Positions 1 to 15,104 are shown, counted from the first letter of the stretch. The stretch is 64,000 nt of DNA from an uncultured Actinomycetes bacterium (GCA_963799625.1 CAWCXU010000002.1:419285-483284); one strand, 5' to 3'. The notes: a model not told the origin generated them from the letters alone. A program made the numbers and translations.

Positions 1-899
1 AACGATCCATTGAACACCTCGTCCTGGCCCAGCGACTGGGCGATCTCGGAAGGCGCATCGATCACGTGGGCCGGCACGGCCGCGAAGATCGCCATCACGA
101 TGGCGATGCCTGCGACCACGACGCCTGCTCTCGCGCGCCACGTTCGAACGAAGGACAGACCGAGCGCAACGGCGGCACCGCTTCCGAGGGCGAACAGGGC
201 CGTGTTCGACTTCGTGTCGACGATCGCGATCAACACGGGCACGAGCACGATGAACTTCGTGAGTCGCCGGCGCGGGACGGGCGACGCCCAGATGACGAAC
301 ACGGACAGGACGAGGTAGCTCCCGGCCATGTTCGGGTCACGGAAGGTGCCGTAGAACCGGTGGAACTGATCGACGATCTCATAGCCGAACACTCGCGGGG
401 GGTGCGCGCCGGACGATCCCGAGGCGAGGATCGCGAGCGCGCTCACGCCGAGCGCCGCGGCCGTCCAGGCGACCGCCGCCCAACGGAGCCCGCGATCGCC
501 GACGATCACGAGCGCGTTCAGCATCACGAGGAACCAGGCGAACAGATAGACGTCGGTCATCACGGCGACCAGCGCCACCGACGGGGCGATCGATTGGCCG
601 ACGGCAAGCAGCCCTCCACCGACGATCAGCAGGTTGCTCCACGCGAGAGGGATGTGGAAGGGCTGTCGCGCGCGGAGCAGACACGCCGTGCCCATCACCA
701 ACAGCAGCACGGCCGGGATGTCGGCTGGCACGCTGTTGTTCGGCCCACGTGGCACGAGGATCGGCAGGAACACCACGTTGAGCACCAGCAGCCAACGCAG
801 GATCGGCTCCATCGGACCGCTCCGGACCCGTCGGAGCTCGCGCGAGCCCTCTTCCGAGCCCTGCGGGATCCCCGCCCGATCGGCAACCGCTCGACTCAT
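1..899 (-). CDS. O-antigen ligase/Wzy-like polysaccharide polymerase family membrane protein, 3' end cut by the window edge
   Basis: Manual minus-strand translation gives a continuous multi-pass membrane protein (…LLVLNVVFLPIL…AWFLVMLNALVIVGDRGLRW…FYGTFRDPNMAGSYLVLSVFVIWASPV…IVDTKSNTALFALGSGAAVALG…) typical of the Wzy_C/O-antigen ligase family. Its ATG at 899-897 overlaps the TGA of the upstream GT (ATGA). The ORF track does not list it because it runs off the window edge. An alternative start is MEPILRW at 812. Confidence 0.6.
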   Translation of the reverse strand, partial: MSRAVADRAGIPQGSEEGSRELRRVRSGPMEPILRWLLVLNVVFLPILVPRGPNNSVPADIPAVLLLVMGTACLLRARQPFHIPLAWSNLLIVGGGLLAVGQSIAPSVALVAVMTDVYLFAWFLVMLNALVIVGDRGLRWAAVAWTAAALGVSALAILASGSSGAHPPRVFGYEIVDQFHRFYGTFRDPNMAGSYLVLSVFVIWASPVPRRRLTKFIVLVPVLIAIVDTKSNTALFALGSGAAVALGLSFVRTWRARAGVVVAGIAIVMAIFAAVPAHVIDAPSEIAQSLGQDEVFNGS

Positions 900-2065
900 G
901 CGTCCCCACGTCCCGTCGCTGCTCGCGCCAGACTTCCCGGTACATCTCGATCGACGCGTCCACCATATGCCCGGTGGAATACTCGGCCCCGACGAGATCG
1001 GCGATCGCCGTGCCGAGCGACTTCAGCTCCTGCTCGGAGCGTCAGGAGCTCGACCACCTGGTCCGCCAGGTCGTCGGGCCGGCCCCCGGCCCCGACGAGA
1101 CGCCCGGTCTCGCCGTCACGGACGACCTCCGAGACACCGCTCACGTCGGTCGAGACCACGGGGACCCCGGCCGCTCCCGCCTCGAGCACCGTCCGGGGCA
1201 GCCCCTCCCATGCGGAGGCGAGCACCAGGAGGTCCATCGCGGCGTACGCCGTCTCGATGTCGTTGCGGAATCCGACCACGTGGATCCGGGGCTCATCCTC
1301 CGTCGACGCGACCGCCTCCTCGAAGGACGGTCCGTCGCCCACCATCAGGAACGACGCTTCCGGCATCGTGCGCACCAACCGCCTTGCCACCTCGAGCACG
1401 ACCTCGGGTCGCTTCTGCGGGAAGTGTCTTCCCACCCAGCCCGCGACCGGTCCGTCGGTCGAGATGCCGAACGAACGCCGGGCTTCCTCGCGGGAGGGAA
1501 GGTTGCGGAACCGGTCGACGTCGATGCCGCTCGGGATGATCGCGATCTGCTCCGGACGCGCGAGGCGGAGCGCGACGAGCTCATCCGCGGTCGCGTGGCT
1601 CACCGCCACGATCCGGTCGCTCGCACGGGCGGCGCGTCGCTCCGCGGCGAGCAGTATCCCGCGCTCGGTGCCCGACATGTCCGGGTTCACCGGCAGGCCG
1701 TGACTCGTATGCACGATCACGGGAACCTTCGCCCGCCTGGCCGCGATCCGTCCGATCACGCCGGCCTTCGATGAATGCGTATGCACCACGTCGAACCCGC
1801 CGTCGCGGATCAGACGGCCCACTTCGCGGTAGGCGCGCGCATCGTCGGCCGGCGAGACCTGACGGACGAGATGCGGCAGGTGCACGAGCGGTACGTCGTC
1901 CGCCTCGAGCCGCTCTTGCATAGGGCCTCCGAGCTGTGAGCCCACCGTGACGTCGAAGCCACGACGACGCATCCCCCCGGCAAGTCCAACGACCGTCTCC
2001 TGGGCGCCGCCACGCTCGAGATGCGTGATCAGCAGCAGGATCTTCGGCCGTTCGGCTGTGCTCAT
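896..2065 (-). CDS. Group 1 glycosyltransferase (GT4 family)
   Basis: ORF 896..2173 with a likely true start MSTAERPKILLLITHLERGGAQE at 2065. Its ATG overlaps the stop of the upstream sulfotransferase (ATGA). The GT4 fold is supported by the C-terminal E…VPVVSTDVSGVSEVV motif region. Confidence 0.85.
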   Translation of the reverse strand: MSTAERPKILLLITHLERGGAQETVVGLAGGMRRRGFDVTVGSQLGGPMQERLEADDVPLVHLPHLVRQVSPADDARAYREVGRLIRDGGFDVVHTHSSKAGVIGRIAARRAKVPVIVHTSHGLPVNPDMSGTERGILLAAERRAARASDRIVAVSHATADELVALRLARPEQIAIIPSGIDVDRFRNLPSREEARRSFGISTDGPVAGWVGRHFPQKRPEVVLEVARRLVRTMPEASFLMVGDGPSFEEAVASTEDEPRIHVVGFRNDIETAYAAMDLLVLASAWEGLPRTVLEAGAAGVPVVSTDVSGVSEVVRDGETGRLVGAGGRPDDLADQVVELLTLRAGAEVARHGDRRSRRGRVFHRAYGGRVDRDVPGSLARAATGRGDA

Positions 2066-3016
2066 GCCGTCACCCCGTCCTGCTGCATCAGCCGGTAGTG
2101 GTATCGCAGCAAGAGAGGCCATGTGAGGGCCGTCACGAGCCGCCGGTCCCCGAGTCCGAGTTTCGTTATCCACTCGACGTCCGGACGGATGGTGAGTGGC
2201 CCCGACTCGAACCGGATCGGGTTGCCGGACACCGTGTGGCTCGAAGTGGGCGGCGACGTCTTCCCCGACACGACGTCGGCGACCGAGGCGGCCGCCTCGT
2301 CCGGCAGGAGCGCCGTGAGCATACCGACCGGATCACAGACGAGATCCTCGTACCGGATGCGATCGTACCGATCAACCTTGCGGCGGACCGCTTCCATCGC
2401 GACGTTCATCGACGACCAATCGAAGCAACTCCGCCACGGCGAGAAGAGCGACATGTCTTGCTCTTGCCAGTGGATCTCGGGGCGAGCCTTCTTCCGCTGC
2501 CACGAATATGCCACGGCGCGGCTATCCCGCACGAGGTGGATCGCGTGGACGCTGACCCTCGGCAACCGGGTGAGCAAGGCGCAATCCGTTGCGTACTTGG
2601 ACGAGTCGACGATCACCTGTCCACCCGTCACACGATCCACCGAGTGCAGGACGCGCTGCAAGGCGTCCAGGTACTCGTGCCGCTGCCTCCGCGTATCGGC
2701 CGACTCCAGGCCGACCCCCGATCTGAGCACCGGCATGGGGCGGGCCACGTCTCGCCATTGGGAGAGGTAGTGCTCCGGATCGAGCTCGTCGATCGGACCC
2801 AGAGCGCCCTTCATGACGTCTCGCCAGAAGGGGCACGAGCGGAAGGGCCTGCCGCAACCACATAGCTGGTTCCCCTGCAGCCCTCGCAACCATAGGTATC
2901 GCAACTCACCCGCAGCGAAATACCCAGGCAACGCGCCCAGCAACAATGAGAGGAGCGTGCTGCCAGTGCGGCTCGCTCCCCCGATGAAGATCGACCTTGG
3001 TGTCGGTTGGGGACAT
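2062..3016 (-). CDS. Sulfotransferase family protein with an apparent +1 frameshift at codon 3
   Basis: ORF 2062..2946 (TTG start in the track) carries the 3'-PB-like region (VIVDSSKY…HLVRDSRAVAYSW) but lacks the PAPS 5'-PSB motif. Extending the same frame upstream gives …PRSIFIGGASRTGSTLLSLLLGALPGY… (the 5'-PSB motif) with no in-frame canonical start. An ATG at 3016-3014 lies one frame off (ATGTCCCCAACC). Removing one C from the CCCC run yields MSQPTPRSIFIGGASRTGSTLL…. Confidence 0.7.
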
Positions 3017-3269
3017 AGGTGCCTATCCGTGGGTCTTGGGGAGACGATACAATCACCCTCCGGTCCTACGCTAGGGTCCGTACGCCCTACCCGGGAAGGG
3101 ATAACGAGATGGTCGAAGTCGCTCGCCCACTCAACAAGTGAGAACAGAAACTTGAAGGCCTAGTTTGGGCCTCCGAGCAGCAGTACCAGTACGAGGCTAC
3201 CCGTTGGGTGGTGCGTTCAACCGAGCCCGGATTCGTCGATCTCGTCGATAGCCTATCTCCACGATCACC

Positions 3270-4071
3270 GTGCCGGCGGGGAGCTCGGAGAAGCCGTCGA
3301 TGCTATCGGCCGACTGCGGCGCGGCGAAGAGCCTGCCCGGCCACATGAAGGTCGAGTCCAAGCTGACGCTCTACTTCGGCACAACCGCGATCTACCGAGG
3401 GTTCTCCCAGCTCGAGATGGCCGGGCGATTGATCCGATTCATGCGGAGCAACGGTTGGCGCTTCAGGAACGACTTCATCCGACTCGACGGCGGCTCCGTC
3501 GTCGTGGACGGCGGCGCGGTGCTGCTCCTGGGAGGCGGCGATCATCGTGTGGCCGCCATAGCTGCCAGGCTGGTCGCGGGCGGCGCCTCGCTGCTCGGGG
3601 ATGACATTACGGTCTGGGAGCCGGTTGACCGGCTGCTGCACCCGCTCGGGATGCCGATCGCGTTGGACGCCGATCTGGCTCACGAGGCCTTCCCTGAGAG
3701 CGTGCCACCCCCCGGCCGGCGTGTTCGAGTCAGGAACGATCGGGCCGCCGTTCCACGCATCTGGCCAGTACCTCTTCGCCCAGAGGAACTCGGAGGAGAC
3801 CAGGCGACGGGAGCCTGCGGCGATCCGGCACGTCTTCGTGGTTGACATGGTCGACGACGCTCCCACCACACTCGAGACGCTCAGTCTCTCTGAGGCGGTC
3901 TTCGCCGCATCCGCGTCCGTGCGCAACATCGAGATCTGGGGCGAGCGAGCCATGATCGCGTTCCGCGAGCTGTACCAGCACGTCCCGTTCTCGAGGCTCG
4001 TGACGAGCTCCATGGACGAGGCAGCTGACGCTGTGCGGCATTCGCTCCCGCACATGGATGGTGTCGCGTGA
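3270..4071 (+). CDS. HprK-related kinase paralog with a degenerate Walker A, carrying an apparent frameshift near 3700-3730
   Basis: Frame-0 ORF 3270..3845 reads …SVVVDGGAVLLLGGGDHRVAAIAARLVAGGASLLGDDITVWEP…PLGMPIALDAD…, an HprK C-terminal kinase-domain-like layout with a degenerate P-loop. The coherent continuation lies in frame 1 (ORF 3601..4071: …LFAQRNSEETRRREPAAIRHVFVVDMVDD…RELYQHVPFSRL…). Its TGA overlaps the GTG of the next gene (GTGA). Confidence 0.55.
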
Positions 4072-4966
4072 CGCAGATCGGGGAAGAGATCCCCTTGCAG
4101 GTTCGGGAATCGGAGAACCCGGTCGTCGACCCCTACCGCGTCATGTCGCTGCCTGCGACGCTGCGACATGGCGACAACCGGCTGCTCGAGGCTCTCAGAT
4201 GGCACCTCCGGCCGTTCGAGATCGCCCATCGCGAGCGCGAGTCGTATGAACTGGAAATCATGGAGACGAGGAAGGAGACGGCCGGACTACCCATGGCGAC
4301 TCACCTACCTCCGAGGCACGGTCCCCATGGTCTCGGGGTCCCCCTGCCGCCGTACTCGACTACGCCCTGTGGGACATCCATTCTCTCGTGTACCAGCACT
4401 GCATGGACTTCCTATTCCTGCATGCCGGCGCGGTCGCCGGCGGCGGGCGCCGAGTGATCCTGCCCGCCGCGCCGGAAACAGGGAAGTCGACGTTGGTGGC
4501 ATCGCTGCTCCGCCTAGGGTGCGAGTACCTCTCCGACGAGCTAGCGCCGATCGACCCTGTGACGGCGGGCGTCTATCCGTTTCCCAAGCACATCGCCGTC
4601 GCCAGATCCGGTTTGGAGTACATCACCGGCGGACCTCCAGAACTCCCGGACGACTACCCTCCCCTAACCGCGCAGCTCTCCAACCGATACCTCCGGCCGG
4701 GCGACCTGAAAGCCGTAGTCGCCGGCTCGGGATCGGTCGACATGATCGTGTTCCCGACGGATGATCGGGAAGGGACTCCCACACTTCAGGCCCTCTCCTC
4801 CTCGGAAACGATCGCGCGCCTCCTCGAACACACGCTCAACGCGGAGCTGTACGGGGACCGGACCTTGACGATGCTGACCAGAGCGTCCAGGGCTGCAGAG
4901 TCGTTCGAACTTACAGGAGGCTCCTCAGAGCAGCGAGCCGAACTCTTGCGCCAGGAACTCTTCTGA
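4068..4966 (+). CDS. HprK-related kinase with an intact Walker A (GKST), carrying an apparent frameshift near 4300-4340
   Basis: Frame-2 part …PPAAVLDYALWDIHSLVYQHCMDFLFLHAGAVAGGGRRVILPAAPETGKSTLVASLLRLGCEYLSDELAPIDP… has the HprK C-domain P-loop GxxGxGKST followed by G..LSDE. The N-terminal 80 aa (MTQIGEEIPLQVRESENPVVDPY…) are in frame 0 (ORF 4068..4457). The frame switch falls in a GGGG/CCCCC run. Confidence 0.65.
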
Positions 4967-4969
4967 AAC

Positions 4970-5009
4970 GCGCAAGGCCCCCCGGTTGGGAGGGCCCTGC
5001 GTAAACTAA
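4970..5009. terminator. GC-rich hairpin between convergent genes, a putative intrinsic terminator without a T-tract
   Basis: cgcaaggccc-(12-nt loop)-gggccctgcg gives a 10-bp stem with one mismatch. It lies immediately after the HprK-related gene stop and at the 3' end of the convergent minus-strand small gene. Confidence 0.4.
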
Positions 5010-5393
5010 CTTCGACTGCCTAGCAGACGAACTCGACCTGACCGTGTCCGCTCGACGTGTAGCAATCGGGGTCGCAGTAGTCGTCGGACGAGCACGGGTT
5101 GCAGTCTCCCTGGCCCACCGGACATGCCGCGTTGCAGATGTCGCTCGCATGGACCACCAAGCGCCGAGCCCGCTTGCGTACAAGCTGGCTTGCACCCGAA
5201 CGCGTTGGTGTCAGTCGGGTCTGAGTGGCAGCAGTTTCCCTGGGGCGGCGGGCCCGAAGCTCCGGTGGACGCCCTCGCGGCGCCCGCGACGACCGTCTGG
5301 ATCGCCGGAGCAGCGAAGATGACCACGCCGCCAGTAGCGGCCGCGCGCTTGATGAAGGACCGGCGGTTCACGCCTTGGCCCTCGGTGTGCTCA
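5006..5393 (-). CDS. Small Tat-signal secreted Cys-rich protein of unknown function, with an apparent frameshift near 5130
   Basis: A GTG start at 5393 is preceded by AAGGAGGGGG. The protein begins MENTEHTEGQGVNRRSFIKRAAATGGVVIFAAPAIQTVVAGAARA, where RRSFIK is a twin-arginine motif. It continues …GNCCHSDPTDTNAFGCKPACTQAGSALGGPC. The +1 frame then reads …ASDICNAACPVGQGDCNPCSSDDYCDPDCYTSSGHGQVEFVC*. Together these give 12 or more Cys in about 90 mature residues. Confidence 0.55.
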
Positions 5394-5620
5394 GTGTTCT
5401 CCACCTGAACCCCCTCCTTCTCTTGTCTGGAGCCCAGGCTAGGGACCCGGCTCGGCCGCCGAATCGCCGTGCTGACGTATCTTCCGTGACGGCCCCGGGC
5501 GGAGCGGCACTCCTCAAACCCGCTGGTCAGGGGCACCGGACGGCGCCCAACTACGACGAACAGCGTACGTCGCGCCTCGCACCCTTCCTGCGGGATGCCC
5601 GCCTGGGATACGCTCCCACG

Positions 5621-6840
5621 ATGCCCCCCAGCTTCGTGCACCGCGCCCTGATCGACGCCGCGCGTGATGAGCTGGATCCATCTCGGGTCGAGGGGGCCAC
5701 CGAGGCCGAGCGTCACGAGCTCCTCATCCGGAGCCGGGACCATGCGGTGCAGGGGCTGGTCGCCCGTTCGGTCCGCCGGGCCGGGGACCTCGAACCCTGG
5801 GCGCTCCCGTTCGTCCAGGACGCGATCGGGATCCGAGAGTCGCATGCACAGCACGTCCGGACGCTCCGGACCGCCTCGTTCGCCCTCGAACGAGCACGAG
5901 GTGCCGGGGCTCCTCATGAAGGGCGCGTCGCTGGTCGATCGCTACTACCACGACGACTCCCTCCGGGCGTACGGCGACGTCGACATGCTCGTTCCCTCCC
6001 AACGGTTCGCCGACGCGTTGTCGATCCTGGAGGAGGCCGGGTTCTCGATCCTCGACCGCAACTGGCACATGCTCCGTGCGGGATATGCGAGGCCAGCTCC
6101 ACCTGCGCTCCCCCGACGGTCACGACATGCTGGAGCTGCACTGGCATCCGATCAATCCGAGCCGGGTCCGCCACACCCTTTCGGTGACCGCGAACGACCT
6201 TTGGTCCGGCGCGTCGCGAACCCGAGTCGCGGGGCGGACGTGTGGGTGCCGCACACGTCCCGCGAGCTGGCCCACCTCTGCCTGCACGCCGCGCTGCACG
6301 GTTGTGACCGCCTGATCTGGCTGGTCGACATCCACAAGGTCATGGACTCCCCCGATCTCGACCTGGACGACCTGCAACGCACCGCACGTCACTGGGGGTT
6401 CGGCGCGGGGACCTATCTCGTGCTCGCCTTGGTCGATCGGTGGCTCGGGCTCTCGCAGCCCCTACGGGATCTCTCGCAGGCTCCACCCGGGCCGCGCCAC
6501 CCTCGCCGCGTTCCACCGGCTGGTCGACCGGTGGGACCTCGGCCGGCCCGCTCGCGACGCGCGGTTCCGGCAGCTGCTCTTCGCGACCGCGGCCGACGGC
6601 GTGGGGCGCCGCGCCAGGCTGACCTGGTCACTCGTGGTGCCGCCGGACGTCAGCGATCCGGATGCGGGCAGGGAGCCACTCGGCCCGCTGCTTTCCAGGA
6701 TGACGATCGGCGCGGCGACCAGGGTCCGGCACAAGCTCGACGAGCATGCCGAGGACGATGCGGCACCCGAATTCCTTCGGCGAGGGGACCCTGCCGTCGG
6801 ACGCGTCCGGTATCTGGCGCGCGTCGCATCCGAACGATAA
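5621..6840 (+). pseudogene. Nucleotidyltransferase family protein (PF14907-like, uncharacterised NTase), disrupted by four or more frame switches
   Basis: Family-typical segments fall in different frames. MPPSFVHRALIDAARDELDPSRVEG…LRTASFALERARGAG is in frame 2. …LLMKGASLVDRYYHDDSLRAYGDVDMLVPSQRFADALSILEEAGFSILDRNWHML is in frame 0. GQLHLRSPDGHDMLELHWHPINPSRVRHTLSVTANDLWSGASRTRVAG is in frame 1. ADVWVPHTSRELAHLCLHAALHGCDRLIWLVDIHKV…LGLSQPLRDL is in frame 0. …ATLAAFHRLVDRWDLGRPARDARFRQLLFATAADG…RVRYLARVASER* is in frame 1. The switches sit in G/C runs (for example ggtgccggggctcc and gcggggcggacg). Confidence 0.7.
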
Positions 6841-6862
6841 GGCATCAGGTCACCGTGATCTG

Positions 6863-8515
6863 CTACGGAGCCGGTGGTAGCTCCCACCGGCTCTCGGCGC
6901 GCGCCGCCTCGTCGTGGTTGTCCGTGCCGTATGGGTCGAGGTCCAGGCTCACCGGCGCCCCTGCGCGCTTCCCGCTGCCGTAGCCCTGCATCCTGCGATA
7001 TCCGGTCAGCTTCCCCAGCTTGATCCCGTTCAGGACGATGCCAACGACATGGGCGTCGTGACGCTGCAGCAGGTCGACACAGTCCTCCATCTCGTCTTCC
7101 AAGGTGACGCCTTGCCGCACGACGACGATCGCCGCGTCGGCCTCTCCGGCGAGCACGATGGCATCCGCGGTGTGGAGCAACGGCGGCGTGTCGATCACGA
7201 CGACGTCGTAGTCGGTCTCCAGGCGCGCGATCGAGCCGATGATCAGGTCCTGTCGCCATCCCGTCTCCCCGGGCATCAGAAAGATCTCGTCGAATCCCAT
7301 CGGATCCGAACGCTTCCGCATCGGCGCCGACGCCCCCCCGGGCGCGGCGGCGGCCTCGAATGTCTTGCGGCGACGGCGCGGCACCGAGTCCGCAACGTCG
7401 GCATGGAACAGGGCCGTCCGCTGCGACGAGGCGGCGTACGACGACGCCAGGTTCGCCGCGATCGTCGACTTCCCCTCCCCGGTCGACGCGCTCACGATCG
7501 CGACCGTGCGGAGGTCGCCGTGATCGCCCAACCTCGACGCTTGCATCCGCAACTCGGCACGGAGCATCGAGATGGACTCGGCTCCCCACGCGGATCGACG
7601 CTGCACGAGCAGCGGTTGGTGTCGCACCGCCCGCGCGCGACCCACCTTGGGGATCGTCGCGAGGATCGGCAGGCCGAGCTCTTCGACCTGCTGACGCCCG
7701 AGGATCTTCGGTCGCACGACACCGAGGGTGAGCGCCAAGGCGATGCCGAGCAGCAAGCCGGCCATCGGGAACAGGAGGAGTCGCAGTGTCCCCGTCGGGA
7801 TCGGTTCCGACGCCGTGCTGAACGGCTTGCTGAGCAGGAGGTAGTTCGTCTCCGCCAGACTGTTCCCGAGCACGATGCTCTCGCGGAAGGCGACGTGCTG
7901 CTGGTACAGGCTGCTGACGGCCTGGTATTCCGTGGAGGTGACCTGCGTGGATGCGTGATTCGCCTGTTCTTGATCGAGCTCGTGGGACAGTTCGTCGAGA
8001 CGAGCCTGCAAGCTGGCGATGCGCGTGTCCACGCTGGCGAGCACCTGATCGACCCGCGTCTGATCTTGCTTGCGCCGATAGTCCACGTAGTTGGAGGCAT
8101 ACGCCGCGAGCTCGTCTGAGATCGCGGGGCTGTCGCCGGTGATCGAGAGGTTGATCACGGGCGCCCCGGGCTCGCCGTCCGCGGTGAGGTTGGTGAGCAG
8201 GGAGTCGCCACCGTCGGTCATCCCCAACTGTTGGGCGGTCGAAGCAGCGACGTCGACCGATACGGCGGCCTGCACCTCCGATGCAGGTACCGTGAGCGAC
8301 GAGGATGACGACACGCCCGTCTGGTCGAACTGCAACGGGCGGATCTCGATGGGCACCGTCGCCGTGTAGGTGCGGGTCGGGGCCCCGGGCCGCGTGACGA
8401 GCGCGAGGAGGAGGCCGCAGACCGTGAGGGCGAGGATCAACCACTTCCGATCCCAGATCATCCGGATGTAGTCGCCCGCGGGCGGTGACCCCTGCTGCTT
8501 CGCGTGTGTCGGCAC
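6863..8515 (-). CDS. Polysaccharide biosynthesis tyrosine autokinase (Wzz-like chain-length domain fused to a CpsD/CapB P-loop; Wzc-like BY-kinase)
   Basis: 550-aa ORF with an N-terminal TM and a periplasmic coiled-coil. A second TM is followed by Walker A SASTGEGKST, then VVVIDTPPLL and a Tyr-containing C-terminal tail (GYRRMQGYGSG…DLDPYGTD). Confidence 0.85.
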   Translation of the reverse strand: MPTHAKQQGSPPAGDYIRMIWDRKWLILALTVCGLLLALVTRPGAPTRTYTATVPIEIRPLQFDQTGVSSSSSLTVPASEVQAAVSVDVAASTAQQLGMTDGGDSLLTNLTADGEPGAPVINLSITGDSPAISDELAAYASNYVDYRRKQDQTRVDQVLASVDTRIASLQARLDELSHELDQEQANHASTQVTSTEYQAVSSLYQQHVAFRESIVLGNSLAETNYLLLSKPFSTASEPIPTGTLRLLLFPMAGLLLGIALALTLGVVRPKILGRQQVEELGLPILATIPKVGRARAVRHQPLLVQRRSAWGAESISMLRAELRMQASRLGDHGDLRTVAIVSASTGEGKSTIAANLASSYAASSQRTALFHADVADSVPRRRRKTFEAAAAPGGASAPMRKRSDPMGFDEIFLMPGETGWRQDLIIGSIARLETDYDVVVIDTPPLLHTADAIVLAGEADAAIVVVRQGVTLEDEMEDCVDLLQRHDAHVVGIVLNGIKLGKLTGYRRMQGYGSGKRAGAPVSLDLDPYGTDNHDEAARAESRWELPPAP

Positions 8516-8516
8516 G

Positions 8517-8852
8517 TCAGCGATCCTCTTCGCTCGCGTCCTCGATCAACCCGAGCGCTTCGAACTCTCCGACGAGGCTTCCGACCTGCTCCTGGACCTG
8601 ACCACGGTCGAGCTCGTATTCGTCCGCGATGTCACTGCTGATCTGTTCCACCGACCCCTCGCCGTCGCAGAGCTGCCACACCAGGGCCGCCGACGGATTG
8701 AGGTGGTGGACGAGACTCGAGCCCCTGTTGAACAGGACGAGTCCATCCTCCATGTCGAGGTCGAGCACATCGGCGCATTTCGTCGGGATGTACCCGCCTG
8801 AGATCTCGAGGGGATCGGAAGGCGCCGGGTCGAGGGGTACCTGTTCGTTCAT
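8517..8852 (-). CDS. PqqD-family protein (RRE-type peptide-binding chaperone domain)
   Basis: 111-aa product MNEQVPLDPAPSDPLEISGGYIPTKCADVLDLDMEDGLVLFNRGSSLVHHLNPSAALVWQLCDGEGSVEQISSDIADEYELD… matches the PqqD/RRE pattern (…lvL.n..sg.i..LN.sa..vW.l.dG..sv.ei…). Its ATG at 8852 overlaps the sugar-transferase stop (8849). Its stop abuts the BY-kinase start. Confidence 0.75.
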   Translation of the reverse strand: MNEQVPLDPAPSDPLEISGGYIPTKCADVLDLDMEDGLVLFNRGSSLVHHLNPSAALVWQLCDGEGSVEQISSDIADEYELDRGQVQEQVGSLVGEFEALGLIEDASEEDR

Positions 8853-9889
8853 GACATGTGATCGATCGTGCTGGGCGCGGTCAGTACCAGCTTCGTGGTC
8901 TTGAAGAGGATCTCGATGTCGAAACGTAGCGTTCGGTGGATCAGATGGAACATGTCGTACTGATGGGTGAGGTACTTGGCCTTCACCGAGTTCCCGTAGC
9001 CGACGTTCAGCGTACCCCACCCGGTCATCCCGGGACGAACCGAGTGTCGCACGTCGTATTGGGGAACGTGTTGTTCGAGGAGCTCCACGAACGCCGGGCG
9101 CTCGGGCCTCGGCCCGATCAACGACATATCCCCCTTCAACACGTTGATGAACTGCGGGAACTCGTCGATCCGGTACTTGCGGAGCACCGCGCCGACGCGC
9201 GTCACGCGGTCGTCGTCGGCCTCGGCCCATCGAGGACCTGCACGCTCGGCATCGATCTCCATCGTGCGGAACTTCACGATCCGGAACGGTCGCTTGTCTC
9301 GTCCGATCCGCTCCTGCTTGAACAGGACCGGTCCTCGGTCGTCCAGCCAGATCGCGACAGCCACGAACGGGAGCAACACGAACAAGAGCAGGCACCCGAG
9401 GATCCCGCCGACGATGTCGATGGTCCTGGACACGATCCGACCGAAAAGACCTGCAGCCTTGGGCACCTCGGTCGCGCCCTCCAACGACGCGATGCGGTAC
9501 CGGCTCTTCGCGAGGCTGCGGACGCTCGTGATGCCGACGCCGGCATCCAGCAATCGGCGCACGACATCCACCGTAGCCGGTGTGACGGTCTCGGTGTGCA
9601 GCGTCACGACGACGGTGTCGTCATCGAGATCGAAGATCGGGAACGCGCCATCCGGTTCGACAAGCTCGACATCCGGCTGCACGCGTAGCCAGTCGGGCGC
9701 CTCGTTGCCGAGGACGATCACCTGGCCGGTTTGGATGACCCGCCTTGTCATCCGCCTCGGCTGGGACTGTTTGGGAAAGGCTTCATCGCGCTCGGTTCGA
9801 AGGACGGTCAAAGGGGTGACCTCCGATAGCTCGATGGGGTGGGATGGGCGCTCATCATAGTGCGAGTCGCCGGGTGCGAGATAGCGCAA
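8849..9889 (-). CDS. Polyprenyl glycosylphosphotransferase (bacterial sugar transferase, WbaP/WcaJ-like short form)
   Basis: A single TM (IVGGILGCLLLFVLLPFVAVAIWL) is followed by the PF02397 signature …RIVKFRTM…DEFPQFINVLKGDMSLIGPRP…. An alternative start is MTRRVIQ at 9751. Confidence 0.85.
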   Translation of the reverse strand: MRYLAPGDSHYDERPSHPIELSEVTPLTVLRTERDEAFPKQSQPRRMTRRVIQTGQVIVLGNEAPDWLRVQPDVELVEPDGAFPIFDLDDDTVVVTLHTETVTPATVDVVRRLLDAGVGITSVRSLAKSRYRIASLEGATEVPKAAGLFGRIVSRTIDIVGGILGCLLLFVLLPFVAVAIWLDDRGPVLFKQERIGRDKRPFRIVKFRTMEIDAERAGPRWAEADDDRVTRVGAVLRKYRIDEFPQFINVLKGDMSLIGPRPERPAFVELLEQHVPQYDVRHSVRPGMTGWGTLNVGYGNSVKAKYLTHQYDMFHLIHRTLRFDIEILFKTTKLVLTAPSTIDHMS

Positions 9890-9966
9890 CTTGGTCGCAG
9901 CTGGACTACGCCATCTGTACTAGAAATGGGTTCCTACCGGCATCTTGTGAACGTACTATCCACATC

Positions 9967-10647
9967 ATGGTTCGCGTAATCGTCGCCGATCCACAACCCT
10001 TCTTTCGCCAAGCATTCATGACCGCGTTGGCACACGAGACAGGGTTCGAGCCGCTGGACGATTCCGGCGACGAGATCGAGACGGCCGCAACGGCGGTGGA
10101 GGGAGCCGCGGATCTCATCCTGACCGAGATCGAACTCGCCGGCGGCTCCGGGCTGCACCTGCCGGCCCGGATCGGGGCCAGCGTCCCGGTGATCGTGGTC
10201 ACGCGCCACCATGAGGCGGAGGTGCTGATGGACGTGGCGGTCTCGGGGGCCGTGGGATGCATCAGTCATGCGGTTGGTCTCAAGCGCGTCGTCGAACTGC
10301 TGCGCGGCTTCCGGCCCGGCCGTTTCTGTGTCGATGACGAGCGCCTGCTCGAGATCCTTCGCCAGGCCGGACGCGCTCCGGTCCAGGAGAGCGACAACCT
10401 CCGGAGGCTGACCGTGCGAGAGCGTGAGGTCCTTGTCAGGCTCTCCTCGGGTGCAACCGACGACGCCATCGCGGAGTCGCTGTACATCAGCCGTCATACC
10501 GTTCGGACGCACGTCGGGAACATCCTGCGGAAGCTCGGCGTGCACTCTCGGGCTCAGGCCGCTCGCCTCGCGCTCGCAGCCGATCCGGATCGGCGGTCGC
10601 AGCCGGACGTGTTGCGGATCGATGGCCCTGGCTGGGGAAGCGATTGA
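9967..10647 (+). CDS. LuxR-family (NarL/FixJ-type) response regulator with an atypical receiver domain
   Basis: MVRVIVADPQPFF…DLILTEIELAGGSG…VIVVTRHHE… is followed by a LuxR HTH (LTVREREVLVRLSSGATDDAIAESLYISRHTVRTHVGNILRKLGV). The position aligned to the phospho-acceptor Asp appears to be Glu (LTEIEL). Confidence 0.8.
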   Translation: MVRVIVADPQPFFRQAFMTALAHETGFEPLDDSGDEIETAATAVEGAADLILTEIELAGGSGLHLPARIGASVPVIVVTRHHEAEVLMDVAVSGAVGCISHAVGLKRVVELLRGFRPGRFCVDDERLLEILRQAGRAPVQESDNLRRLTVREREVLVRLSSGATDDAIAESLYISRHTVRTHVGNILRKLGVHSRAQAARLALAADPDRRSQPDVLRIDGPGWGSD

Positions 10648-10683
10648 ACCTCGACGGGGAGAACGTCGGCGGCCGACAGGCCA

Positions 10684-11294
10684 TGATCGTGTCGGGGGAC
10701 CCGCTCTTCCGCGACGCCGCGGCCGCTCACCTCAGATCGCACGGGTGGCTCGTCCCGACGTGCGAATCCGACGGGATGCGGGCGCTCTCCCTGCTCACTC
10801 GACAACCCATCGACGCCATCCTCATCATCGGGGAGGTGGCGCGGATCGGGGGCGCCGCACTCAAAACCGAGGTTGGGCGTCGGTGGCCGGAGATCGTGGT
10901 GGTCACGCTTCCCAACGGCTACCCGTCGGGAGAGAACGACGTCGCACTCGAGGCCGACACCGACGAGGTCCTGGCCTCGTTGGGGTCGCCGACGCCGCCG
11001 GGCCCGACCCTAGACCCGAACTCGGACCCCGTCGTCTTGCGGCTCGCCTCGTTGACACCGAGGGAACGGACGATCCTGCGAGGACTCGGGAATGGCGAGA
11101 CGCCGGCCGAGATCGCCGAGGGCCTCGGCCTGAGCGGGCATACCGTCCGCTCCCACCTAGCGAACCTCCACCACAAGCTCGACGTGCATCGACGGGTCGA
11201 ACTCGTCCGGCTCGCCGCCGTTGCGGGACTCGTCAGCGAGGAGGCCGATCACGGACGATCGGGCACGGCTGCGGATGAACCTGCGGGCCGCTGA
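10684..11294 (+). CDS. Second LuxR-family response regulator with an atypical receiver domain
   Basis: MIVSGDPLFRDAAAAHL…IDAILIIGEVARIGG…VVVTLPNG… plus a LuxR HTH (LTPRERTILRGLGNGETPAEIAEGLGLSGHTVRSHLANLHHKLDV). The track ORF starts at TTG 10644, which overlaps the previous stop (TTGA). The ATG at 10684 fits a receiver N-terminus. Confidence 0.75.
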
Positions 11295-11324
11295 CCCAAC
11301 GGCTCACGCTCGACCGGGGATATC

Positions 11325-11355
11325 GAAGGGGCGGGGCCGAAGGCCCCGCCCCTTC
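11325..11355. terminator. Perfect hairpin forming a bidirectional intrinsic terminator between the convergent LuxR-family gene and groEL
   Basis: gaaggggcggggcc-gaa-ggccccgccccttc gives a 14-bp perfect GC-rich stem with a 3-nt loop in the 90-bp convergent intergenic region. Confidence 0.6.
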
Positions 11356-11384
11356 GTGGAGCGTTTCGAGGTGCCGAACGGAGG

Positions 11385-13353
<1,969 letters not shown>

Positions 13354-13406
13354 CTCCTGGGTCCCTCCTTCTGATGCGGGTCCGACTAGATGACCCGGGA
13401 CGTTGG

Positions 13407-13433
13407 TTAGCACTCCCGGGTCGTGAGTGCTAA
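13407..13433. promoter_or_regulatory. CIRCE operator (HrcA binding site) upstream of groES-groEL
   Basis: TTAGCACTC-ccgggtcgt-GAGTGCTAA is an exact match to the CIRCE consensus TTAGCACTC-N9-GAGTGCTAA. It lies about 55 nt upstream of the groES start. Confidence 0.9.
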
Positions 13434-13509
13434 CAGGATAGCCAGGAGAGTGCCAACTCGGCAAGGCGAGGTCCGTTGACCCGGCTTCCGGCCGGGCGGA
13501 GACTGCGCC

Positions 13510-13938
13510 ATGCAGCAACCGCCGCCACCTCCCCCGGCACCGGCGGCACCGCCCACGCGGCGCGGCCTCCCGAAGGGTCTCAAGCTCCTGTTCGTCCTCC
13601 TGGCCGTGTTCTTCGTGCTGACGGGGGTCATCGCGTACGCGAACCGGTGGTTCATCTCGTACGTGACCTCGACCAGCCCGCACGCGATCACCTATGAGGT
13701 CACGGGGAGCGGGACGGCGCAGGTGGCCTACGGGACGCCCGAGGGCACGACGACGGACACGGTCTCGCTCCCCTGGGAGGTGACCCTGACGGTTCCCGAC
13801 GGGTCGATGCTGTCGATCGCGGCGACCGGGACCAGCGGCGGGTTCCTCACCTGCCGGATCAAGTGGGAGGGACACACGATCGGGCTCGACACCGAGTCCG
13901 CGAACCAGCCGGCGTGTCAGAAGTCGGCGACGGCCTAG
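13510..13938 (+). CDS. MmpS-family small membrane protein (single N-terminal TM, Pro-rich N-terminus)
   Basis: [15 protein letters not shown]…[21 protein letters not shown]…[20 protein letters not shown]…[10 protein letters not shown]…[28 protein letters not shown] shows the MmpS-like layout with the two conserved Cys. Confidence 0.7.
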
Positions 13939-15104
13939 CCGGCTTTGGCCGGCGGTCCAGGCTCCGCAAGGGCCGGCAGCGGCTCCGCGCGCACCCAGGC
14001 GATCCGGTCGGGGATGCTCCCGTGGGTCGCGAACAGCAGCCGCGCGACCCGGCTCGGGTCGAGGTCGGCGAGGTTGGACACGGCGAGACGCCGCAAGAGC
14101 AACGCGAACCCCACCGGGTCCCGCGTGAGCCGGACGCCGAACAGGTCCGCGGCGCGCTCCTGGCTGCGGATGTACCCGACGACGATCGGTCGCAGGGCGA
14201 TCCCGAAGGCCCCCCACACCAGCAACAGGAGCGGCACATAGGTCGGATCAGGAGCGACGAAGGGCACCCGTGTGACGAGCCCGCCGAAGAACGCCACGGG
14301 CACCCCGTCGTATAGCAAGGCCCCGGGGAGGCGATCGACGAGCGTCACCGTCGCGACGAACACGACCGCGGCCACGGCGAGGAACACGCCGAGCCGCTTG
14401 ACCGTGTGGTGCAGCCGCATGTGCCCGAGCTCGTGGGCGACGGCGGCGTCCAGACAGATCGGACCCTCGGCCGCGAGCGTGTCGAACACGACGAGCCGCC
14501 GCGTCGGCCACACCCCGACCACGAACGCGTTCTGCCGGCGCGTGCCCTGCATGACCTTGCGGACGCGGACACCGTCGAGCTGGACGCGGGATCGGCGGAT
14601 CAGGCTCCGGAGTCGTGCGGCCGTCGGCGGATCGTCGACCTTGTGCGCGGACGCAGCGACGAGCAACGGCGCGACGAGGACGGCGACGGGGAGCCACACG
14701 AGCGTCCCGACCATCTGGCCGTACCCGAACAGCACCACGTCCCAGATCTGCTGCATCCAGGCCGGTCCCGCGAGGATCAGCAGCAACCCCCACACGAGCG
14801 ACCGCACCGGCAACTGATGCCAGCCCTGCGACAGGCCCTGCGCTCGCTCGTCGCGCGCGCCGGCGAACGCGACCGGGATCGTGAGCGCCCAGCCGATCGC
14901 GAGGCTCACGGCCGCGATGTCCCACACCGACCCGGTGCCCGAGCCCGAGGTCGACATGGATCGCGACAGACCGGACACGTACACACCCACGAACGCCGCC
15001 GCATAGAGCGCCTGGCGCCAGACGAAGCGTCGATACCGGCGACGCGCGAACGCGGCGGCCCGCGCGCGCTCGCGTTCGGTGAACTCGCCGACCGCGTCGG
15101 CCAT
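13935..15104 (-). CDS. M48-family zinc metallopeptidase (HtpX/Ste24-like) membrane protein
   Basis: [29 protein letters not shown]… has multiple TM segments. [10 protein letters not shown] provides the HExxH zinc motif, and a downstream [10 protein letters not shown] glutamate motif follows. The 881-aa track ORF 13935..16580 fuses this gene in frame to the TPR tail of the upstream decayed regulator. Confidence 0.75.

Follow-up and report, generated by a model that had tools for sequence, protein, structure and literature searches.

Positions 3,017 to 9,889 of a 64,000-nucleotide (nt) stretch of DNA from an uncultured Actinomycetes bacterium (GCA_963799625.1 CAWCXU010000002.1:419285-483284; the whole stretch is called the window here) hold two kinase-like genes, kinB and kinA, a gene for a small cysteine-rich protein with a twin-arginine translocation (Tat) leader, a PF14907 nucleotidyltransferase gene and a gene for a PqqD-family protein, set among genes of polysaccharide assembly. 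Genes were located with frame plots of G+C at third codon positions (GC3) and lists of open reading frames (ORFs); the G+C content of the window is 63–74%, as measured over the first 20 kb. A sequence-only reading of this DNA had described the kinase pair, the nucleotidyltransferase and the PqqD protein as a quartet in a row. All four genes are present, but they are not contiguous: the PqqD gene lies 1.7 kb off on the other strand. That reading had also overlooked the small gene, which sits between kinA and the nucleotidyltransferase gene, and an in-frame TGA in kinB.

kinB (3109..4071, plus strand) begins with an ATG at 3109 preceded by the Shine-Dalgarno sequence GGGAAGGGA at 3093-3101. Its stop at 4071 overlaps by 4 nt (GTGA) the GTG start, at 4068, of kinA (4068..4966, plus strand; 298 amino acids, aa). 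The proposal that the two are tandem, translationally coupled paralogs, one with an intact and one with a degenerate P-loop, is borne out. Comparison of the kinB and kinA profiles with hhalign gives a probability of 100% and an E-value of 5e-40 over 286 columns. kinA carries the motif PETGKST, with GKST coded at 4478-4489, and the equivalent place in kinB reads GGGDHRVAA. The kinA alignment keeps H-A-G, G-K-S-T and Y-L-S-D-E; kinB is a full-length paralog minus the Walker A/P-loop and the His and, to judge from its sequence, is a pseudokinase partner of kinA. A database protein, P0001, is 99% identical to the kinA fragment of the window, and is intact at 298 aa.

The assignment of the pair to the HprK C-domain and to the corresponding TIGRFAM families stood as far as the fold is concerned, and did not stand for family membership. 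Against TIGR04352 (cut-off 200 bits), kinA scores 81.7 bits as the window fragment, 84 as P0001 and 96.6 as the ortholog in a related locus, L002; the scores of kinB are 22.6–26.2 bits. TIGR04355 (cut-off 200 bits) did not match kinB, PF07475 gave no Pfam match at E<=0.01 for either kinase, and searches of PDB sequences with kinA and with the nucleotidyltransferase returned nothing significant. The AlphaFold2 (AF2) model of kinA has a predicted local distance difference test (pLDDT) value of 89.9. Its closest fold match in Foldseek is phosphoenolpyruvate carboxykinase (PEPCK; E 7e-6, TMq about 0.5), and the C-domain of HprK/P (1kkl_B) is matched at E 3e-4 and TMt 0.57. According to this model kinA has the PEPCK/HprK P-loop kinase fold. 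It shares that fold with HprK/P and ATP-dependent PEPCK at a sequence identity of 9–17% and with a different N-terminal domain.

The in-frame TGA is codon 11 of kinB (3139..3141, plus strand) and is conserved across homologs. It was found in 33/33 kinB loci and in 20/20 further metagenome contigs, the latter gathered with a TGH pattern that permits TGA, TGC or TGT; none of these 53/53 TGA-containing sequences has TGC or TGT (Cys) at the site. Ten codons ahead of the TGA, most loci have an ATG, GTG or TTG with a strong GGAGG-type Shine-Dalgarno sequence. Beyond the TGA, most loci have about 22 codons of open frame, conserved in amino acids, before the first canonical start is reached. This conserved stretch, E-E-x-L-E-R-L-x-W-V-A-x-D-x-Y..., shows the wobble-type variation of coding sequence and aligns with the structured N-terminal strands of kinA. 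In a distant kinB-like gene of a Dehalococcoidia metagenome-assembled genome (MAG; L036, about 9710) the N-terminal motif (KKKLDAQAWVSSDSY...VRSTS) is kept, and a Ser codon, TCC, replaces the TGA.

Initiation after the TGA was considered as a way round the stop and rejected, since most loci lack a canonical start for about 22 codons. A near-cognate start was rejected as well: the fourth codon, which is CTC, CTG, ATC, ATG, CTA or CTT, reads Leu, Ile or Met, i.e. it changes conservatively. The sequence GAGGAG, a possible Shine-Dalgarno for a post-TGA start, is missing in the window and in L002. On this pattern of conservation, the UGA must be recoded or read through for the first gene of the coupled kinB-kinA pair to be expressed. 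Gene callers truncate kinB in every assembly.

An RNA hairpin follows the TGA (3151..3177, plus strand), with an outer stem of 3151-3154/3174-3177, an inner stem of 3156-3162/3166-3172 and the loop GUU. With RNAfold a hairpin begins 14–17 nt past the UGA, at the same position, in most of 22 distinct sequences. Changes in the stem are compensatory: the window has AGGCCUA-GUU-UGGGCCU, and the pairs are GCGACUC/GGGUCGC in L003, GCAGCUC/GGGCUGC in L009 and GGCCCA/UGGGUC in L017. Hairpin stability falls in the top quartile of 27-nt windows of kinB plus kinA in 18/22 loci; against synonymous-codon shuffles the hairpin is mildly more stable (mean z -0.76). Past the UGA, RNAalifold arrived at no consensus structure and Rfam had no family match; no tRNA genes were found in the 64-kb window.

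Bacterial selenoprotein genes are usually recognized by an in-frame UGA with a small-loop selenocysteine insertion sequence (SECIS) hairpin immediately downstream, and by homologs with Cys at the site (PMC1088965). Like such genes, kinB has a conserved UGA, with conserved coding sequence on both sides of it; the hairpin that in most sequences starts 14–17 nt further on has a small, G-containing apical loop and may be SECIS-like. Unlike them, it is without Cys-codon homologs (53 sequences) and without a CxxU or UxxC motif. Either selenocysteine insertion or programmed read-through may therefore account for the UGA.

The small gene (5020..5404, minus strand) encodes a precursor-like protein of 127 aa and is broken in the window by a private 1-nt insertion at about 5144-5146. 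The protein reads MENTEHTEGQGVNRRSFIKRAAATGGVVIFAAPAIQTVVAGAARA followed by STGAS...CCHS.... It combines a Tat-type leader, NRRSFIKRAA...AxA, with a C-C-H-S motif and 12 Cys within about 80 residues. The leader scores 19.2 bits against the Tat-signal model TIGR01409 (cut-off 16.7). Within the family RRxF(L/I)(R/K) and AxA are invariant or nearly so, and 94 sequences have R14, R15, F17, A21, A22, P33, the AxA site, C58 and S61 in common without exception. The leader is the better conserved part, with a mean pairwise identity of 0.70 against 0.35 for the core. C-x-x-S is present in 121/121 small proteins, in 115 of them as C-x-[H/W]-S, and the number of Cys in the mature part is even (10, 12, 14 or 16) in 118/121, two of the three exceptions being evidently truncated or frameshifted. 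AF2 models the C-terminal ~58 residues (about 70-127) at pLDDT 83–95, and the modelled fold has no neighbour in the PDB.

A profile search for the small protein yielded at least 236 clusters at 90% identity, among which no name occurs beyond 'twin-arginine translocation signal domain-containing protein'. In a HMMER scan of 1.84 billion representatives there were 872 matches at E<=1e-3, 64 of them at E<=1e-10. Some matches, P0228, P0233 and P0237 among them, align with the profile in the leader alone (positions about 3-50) and continue into longer C-terminal parts of unrelated sequence; other cargo, too, may carry this leader. A copper-storage (Csp) or metallothionein-like protein was considered and rejected, there being no Pfam or NCBIfam match, and the strictly even Cys count favours disulfides. 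L028 has two tandem copies of the small gene (5981-6343 and 6514-7026), one of them apparently frameshifted.

The gene is present in L001, L002, a JGI contig, L003/L004 and about 20 further Actinomycetota MAG loci. The substrate of the module had been called undescribed, but here a conserved candidate lies inside the module itself. Because the small gene adjoins the PqqD gene directly downstream and on the same strand in most related loci, its product is likely the substrate of the cassette. [quoted passage not shown]

The predicted presence of a PqqD-type peptide-binding protein and of a PF14907 nucleotidyltransferase was confirmed, both being above the curated cut-offs. The RRE-type PqqD protein of the window (8517..8852, minus strand; 111 aa) scores 57.8 bits against PF05402 and 41.4 bits against TIGR04353 (cut-off 35), for which the L002 ortholog reaches 47.8 bits. 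Its start overlaps the stop of a priming transferase gene by 4 nt and its stop is 1 nt ahead of the start of a Wzc-like gene, so that in the window PqqD is embedded in the priming/export operon and not beside the kinases. The nucleotidyltransferase gene (5621..6840, plus strand; 405 aa) has frame disruptions at 5887, 6076, 6233 and 6477. Against PF14907 (gathering threshold 31.2 bits) its largest window fragment scores 86.1 bits, the reconstruction 134.9 and the L002 ortholog 119.8, and a G-S...D-x-D motif, read by eye from the sequence, is retained. In L003 (9460-10840) and L016 (18039-19440) a short PqqD gene of its own lies just upstream of the PF14907 gene and overlaps it. Some related loci therefore hold two RRE-type proteins: the small precursor is accompanied by one of them, the nucleotidyltransferase by the other.

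When 85 fetched loci were surveyed with phmmer, they showed a conserved cassette of kinB-kinA, PqqD, the small protein, two GerE regulators, a Wzc-like protein and, often, the nucleotidyltransferase. In its core arrangement, found in uncultured Actinomycetota, the two GerE genes diverge from kinB and kinA, and PqqD and the small gene converge on the kinase genes from the other side. Syntenic intact loci have kinA proteins 62% (L002), 59% (JGI contig) and about 42% (L003/L004) identical to that of the window, and the cassette recurs in about 20 further Actinomycetota MAG loci. The claim of a conserved but uncharacterised module of a kinase pair, PqqD and PF14907 is thus upheld in about 25 independent loci. 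Of these loci, 15 have a Wzc-like gene close to the cassette, and several have a PF14907 gene. Three new small-protein matches were also taken as starting points: all three contexts (3/3) show the kinase pair again, as two 252–280-aa proteins without Pfam match, together with two GerE regulators and polysaccharide genes. PqqD and Wzc are present in 2/3, the context in L093 ending at a contig edge on that side, and L092 has the gene order of the window for this block.

Among the other neighbours (85 proteins), Polysacc_synt_2 occurs 10 times, glycosyltransferases of the GT1/GT4 type 7 times and UDP-glucose dehydrogenase 4 times. The neighbourhood comparison that the sequence-only reading had proposed thus came out in its favour for Wzc and polysaccharide genes, and the sulfotransferase is limited to the closest lineages. 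An AMP-binding enzyme and an acyl-CoA dehydrogenase recur near some cassettes or in related strains (L091 1-2800; L094 13239-15650), accompanied in L091 by an acyl-carrier protein, which hints at an acyl modification pathway in these neighbourhoods. For the rest of the window the NCBIfam summary comprises the top 25 families, and other relevant genes may still lie there. In literature searches neither this cassette, nor Tat-leader substrates of PqqD, nor the UGA of kinB turned up as the subject of a paper, and there was nothing relevant under HprK-related kinase, under PqqD with HPr kinase and exopolysaccharide, or under twin-arginine with RiPP and RRE; the sole paper found for PF14907 deals with phosphonate clusters.

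The closest named entity is the HPr-rel-A system, itself uncharacterised, which consists of kinase A (TIGR04352), kinase B (TIGR04355) and a PqqD chaperone (TIGR04353). Common to both are a P-loop kinase with a relationship to family A, a second, paralogous kinase-like protein, a PqqD protein scoring above the TIGR04353 cut-off, and PF14907 genes that are often nearby. PF14907 is a frequent neighbour of the HPr-rel-A system, not a defined member of it, and the window gene passes its own Pfam threshold. The two differ in that only PqqD is above threshold here: kinA scores 82–97 against the required 200 bits, and kinB resembles kinA, not TIGR04355. Because both kinases are under the cut-offs of their models, the cassette is placed outside the HPr-rel-A system and, on these scores, is a divergent relative and no member. 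The actinobacterial cassette also goes beyond that system in having a Cys-rich protein with a Tat leader, a pair of atypical GerE regulators, linkage to Wzc and the UGA in kinB. Strong TIGR04352 matches (best E 1.4e-68) do occur beside PqqD in the distant loci L048-L085, which are mostly from Proteobacteria and Acidobacteriota.

In function the nearest parallel comes from lasso peptides. [quoted passage not shown] The present cassette shares an HprK-like kinase, a nucleotidyltransferase and a PqqD-like leader binder with this tailoring, both of the paeninodin type and as PsmK/PsmN of pseudomycoidin, and the window, like some lasso clusters, also has a (putative) sulfotransferase. It differs in that its kinase comes as an active/pseudokinase pair, and in its likely substrate: a ~125-aa Tat-signal protein with 10–16 Cys here, against a lasso core of ~20 aa with a C-terminal Ser. 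By analogy, the cassette would work most like the lasso tailoring trio, minus the lasso core enzymes.

The absence of a lasso cyclase and the polysaccharide-locus setting, both noted from the sequence alone, were confirmed by tblastn on the window and by the neighbour survey. With an AsnB-type protein as query for an Asn-synthetase-like cyclase, tblastn on the 64-kb window met only the GATase domain of GlmS. No lasso cyclase is among the conserved neighbours, one AsnB-type gene in L003 lying beside uronic-acid genes, and the top neighbour Pfam families include no (transglutaminase-like) B2 leader peptidase, for which no dedicated query was run. Another HprK-like plus PqqD-like pair in a peptide-modification cassette is ScmC/ScmD of SynChlorMet (TIGR04249/TIGR04248; PF27840 'ScmC'). 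Distant kinA homologs carry PF27840, and the ScmC/ScmD matches are weak, far under the cut-offs. The radical SAM/SPASM maturases of SynChlorMet are absent from the present cassette.

What was observed comprises the gene content and its conservation, the paralogy and fold of the kinases, the division of the small protein into leader and core, and a conserved UGA followed by a hairpin. On these grounds the region can be read as a RiPP-like cassette that matures a small disulfide-rich protein exported by Tat, and that is physically, and probably also functionally, tied to a polysaccharide locus dependent on Wzc. This reading is given a probability of about 45%. Its chemical steps, the contact between RRE and leader, the target residue and the link to polysaccharide are inferred. 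A precursor of ~125 aa would be made with a near-invariant twin-arginine leader. The cytoplasmic PqqD/RRE protein would bind the leader and hand the unfolded core to a complex of kinA, the active kinase, and kinB, a pseudokinase scaffold, which would phosphorylate a hydroxyl, most likely that of the invariant Ser of C-x-(H)-S just past the leader. The PF14907 enzyme would extend the phosphate with a glycosyl or nucleotidyl group, mirroring lasso tailoring by PsmK/PsmN. The modified protein would exit via Tat, the leader would be cleaved at AxA and the even-numbered cysteines would pair as disulfides. Expression would be gated by obligatory recoding or read-through of the UGA that forms codon 11 of kinB, which stands first in the coupled pair. 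The link to Wzc and polysaccharide, suggested by gene neighbourhood, may consist in physical attachment, regulation or co-secretion.

Two features of the cassette are unusual, the Tat signal as a putative leader and the universally conserved UGA that appears to be recoded. The more specific proposal, that the Tat signal doubles as a RiPP-type leader and that kinB is made only via UGA recoding, with selenocysteine carried by a flexible arm at the N-terminus or through read-through aided by the hairpin, is speculative and, taken as a whole, doubtful. If it were true, secreted mini-proteins modified after translation and coupled to the export of polysaccharide would form a new class, and bacteria would have a new recoding site.

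Several points weigh against a RiPP-like maturation cassette. The chemistry of the modification is a prediction. Lasso kinases target a C-terminal Ser, yet the C-terminus of the small protein is variable. With its conserved Cys scaffold and confident AF2 fold, the core resembles a small secreted protein more than it does the core of a classical RiPP. Constraints from Tat or from redox enzyme maturation proteins (REMP-type), rather than RRE binding, could lie behind the conservation of the leader. The kinases score under the TIGRFAM cut-offs, the nucleotidyltransferase is absent within 10 kb in several loci, and L019, a locus on a complete chromosome, has neither Wzc nor nucleotidyltransferase nearby (10 kb). 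A phenotype is lacking because all relatives are uncultured MAGs.

The genes around the cassette have to be considered at this point. At the left end of the window lie, all on the minus strand and as context genes, a Wzy_C-family membrane protein of the polymerase or ligase type (1..899), which runs past the start of the window and for which PF04932 is annotated on the syntenic genes of L001 and L002, and a GT4 glycosyltransferase (896..2065), identified by the Pfam annotation of its syntenic genes. Compared with L001, the GT4 gene of the window lacks one nucleotide and has gained another (at about 936 and 1043, 107 nt apart), and the GC3 phase changes between the two sites; this is probably a compensated frameshift and another assembly artefact. 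A sulfotransferase of the 3'-phosphoadenosine 5'-phosphosulfate (PAPS) type follows (2062..3016, minus strand; 317 aa), its start lost to a window-private 1-nt insertion at 2992. That such an enzyme is present proved correct, the PF13469 score being 40.9 bits (cut-off 27) once the N-terminus is restored. Its proposed part in the system did not survive, because it is absent in all loci past the closest lineages: it occurs in the lineage to which the window belongs, in the JGI contig and, as a split gene, in L002, and is missing from L003-L028. The sulfotransferase is a lineage-specific accessory gene outside the conserved core.

Flanking the PqqD gene in the window are those for an intact, 550-aa Wzc-like protein with polysaccharide co-polymerase and bacterial tyrosine kinase (BY-kinase) domains (6863..8515, minus strand), whose L002 ortholog is matched by TIGR01007 (eps_fam) and by Wzc models at scores under the cut-offs, and the priming enzyme, a Bac_transf polyprenyl-phosphate sugar-phosphate transferase (8849..9811, minus strand; gene calls of 300–320 aa), whose L002 ortholog scores 201.8 bits against PF02397.

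This setting suggests the alternative that fares best. The kinase pair and the nucleotidyltransferase might tailor the polysaccharide, or else its precursors in lipid-linked or nucleotide-sugar form, for example through phosphorylation of a sugar and its subsequent nucleotidylation, with the small protein and PqqD as accessories, the former e.g. as a periplasmic or extracellular partner of Wzc. The cassette does lie mostly within polysaccharide loci, polysaccharide enzymes prevail among its neighbours, in both the window and L092 the PqqD gene stands in translational coupling between those for the priming transferase and Wzc, and PEPCK, the closest fold match of kinA, is a small-molecule kinase. 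To our knowledge, however, PqqD-family proteins bind peptides in every case in which they have been characterised. A PqqD-small gene pair beside the kinases is the commonest arrangement, the polysaccharide genes differ among loci while the core of kinases, PqqD and small protein is constant, and the core in L019 is without Wzc or nucleotidyltransferase within 10 kb. Tailoring of polysaccharide precursors is considered unlikely on this balance.

Two regulators lie beyond the priming enzyme. RR1, of the GerE/LuxR type with an atypical receiver (9967..10647, plus strand), scores 36.2 bits against PF00072 and 64 bits against PF00196; in the consensus of 19 orthologs the acceptor Asp of the receiver is replaced (...DLILTEIEL...) and the K is changed to H. 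The second GerE/LuxR-type regulator (10644..11294, plus strand; PF00196 59.8 bits), which is paired with RR1 in nearly all loci, has a degenerate receiver-like N-terminus. The phospho-acceptor Asp is missing from both, consistently so in 19 and 17 orthologs, respectively, and both regulators are probably atypical and phosphorylation-independent.

HprK/P is a regulatory protein-Ser kinase, and the cassette could by the same token be a regulatory device, in which the kinase pair phosphorylates the two GerE regulators, or Wzc, and switches polysaccharide production, with the small protein as an extracellular signal or sensor ligand. The divergent linkage of the regulators to kinB-kinA in nearly all loci agrees with this, as do their receivers, which without an acceptor Asp need another input. 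Such a device would nevertheless leave PqqD and the nucleotidyltransferase without a role, HATPase_c histidine kinases are also found near the cassette in 5 loci, and the leader/core architecture and the adjacency of PqqD indicate that the small protein is a substrate. Regulation as the primary function is rated quite improbable.

There is also the question whether the module is a decaying pseudogene cluster in this strain. Frame disruptions had been reported from the sequence alone and are real in kinB, kinA and the nucleotidyltransferase gene: with the small gene included, at least ten 1-nt indels break these genes in the window, and the window-private insertions include those at about 3259, 3288 and 3806 in kinB and at 4280 and 4334 in kinA. 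The suggestion that the module may be inactive finds no support. The contig L001 is 98.4% identical to window 1-14962 and carries the intact kinA protein P0001; between the two there are 40 gap columns, all but one of them single-nucleotide indels, in both directions. Four more assemblies of the same species, L087-L090, were found by exact look-up of the window Wzc protein (L086 being the L001 contig). In a multiple alignment of the six, nearly every indel is private to a single assembly, and each assembly has its own.

The nucleotidyltransferase (405 aa), small gene (127 aa), kinA (298 aa), sulfotransferase (317 aa) and GT4 (389 aa) are intact in L087, where groEL is split. In L001 kinA and the small gene are intact and groEL and the sulfotransferase are split, and L088 and L090 have an intact nucleotidyltransferase. 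The majority consensus of the six assemblies restores the ORFs of sulfotransferase, kinB, kinA and nucleotidyltransferase. The exception is the small gene, on which the assemblies tie and which is intact in L001 and L087. groEL serves as an internal control for assembly errors. It adjoins the cassette at 11385-13001, at the same position as in L001, L002, L087 and L088, is intact in the window (829 bits) and is split in sister assemblies; a Cpn10/groES gene is adjacent too in the syntenic loci.

The contig names suggest long-read metagenome assemblies. Indels and single-nucleotide polymorphisms pile up at 2–6.5 kb, from the sulfotransferase to the nucleotidyltransferase, in all six assemblies, a concentration that might speak for decay, and at 6.5–9.87 kb (Wzc-PqqD-Bac_transf) none of the six has any indel. 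We infer that a strain-hypervariable segment at 2–6.5 kb degrades the long-read consensus, rather than a uniform error. Because the indels are private to each assembly, the consensus is intact and distant syntenic lineages are intact, the frameshifts are assembly errors, inactivity of the module is not supported, and its decay in this strain is very improbable. A remnant or variant lasso-peptide cluster with tailoring enzymes is barely credible, for although the trio of kinase, nucleotidyltransferase and sulfotransferase with a PqqD-like B1 protein is known from Firmicutes lasso clusters (PMC8498205), the 64-kb window has no Asn-synthetase homolog, nor have the conserved neighbours, bar the one AsnB-type gene in L003, and a core of ~80 residues with 10–16 Cys is unlike a lasso core.

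In practical terms, long-read metagenome assemblies give this locus the false look of a pseudogene cluster, and gene callers cut kinB short. If the RiPP-like model is right, the conserved kinB UGA and the hairpin downstream of it would be either the mark of a new family of selenoproteins that lacks Cys homologs or an instance, rare in bacteria, of programmed stop-codon read-through. On the same condition, orphan sets of HprK-related kinase, PqqD and PF14907 genes would gain a concrete, testable substrate, and RRE-guided tailoring would reach from short antibiotic-like peptides to Tat-exported, disulfide-rich mini-proteins. The product would be linked to Wzc-dependent polysaccharide assembly in abundant, uncultured soil Actinomycetota.

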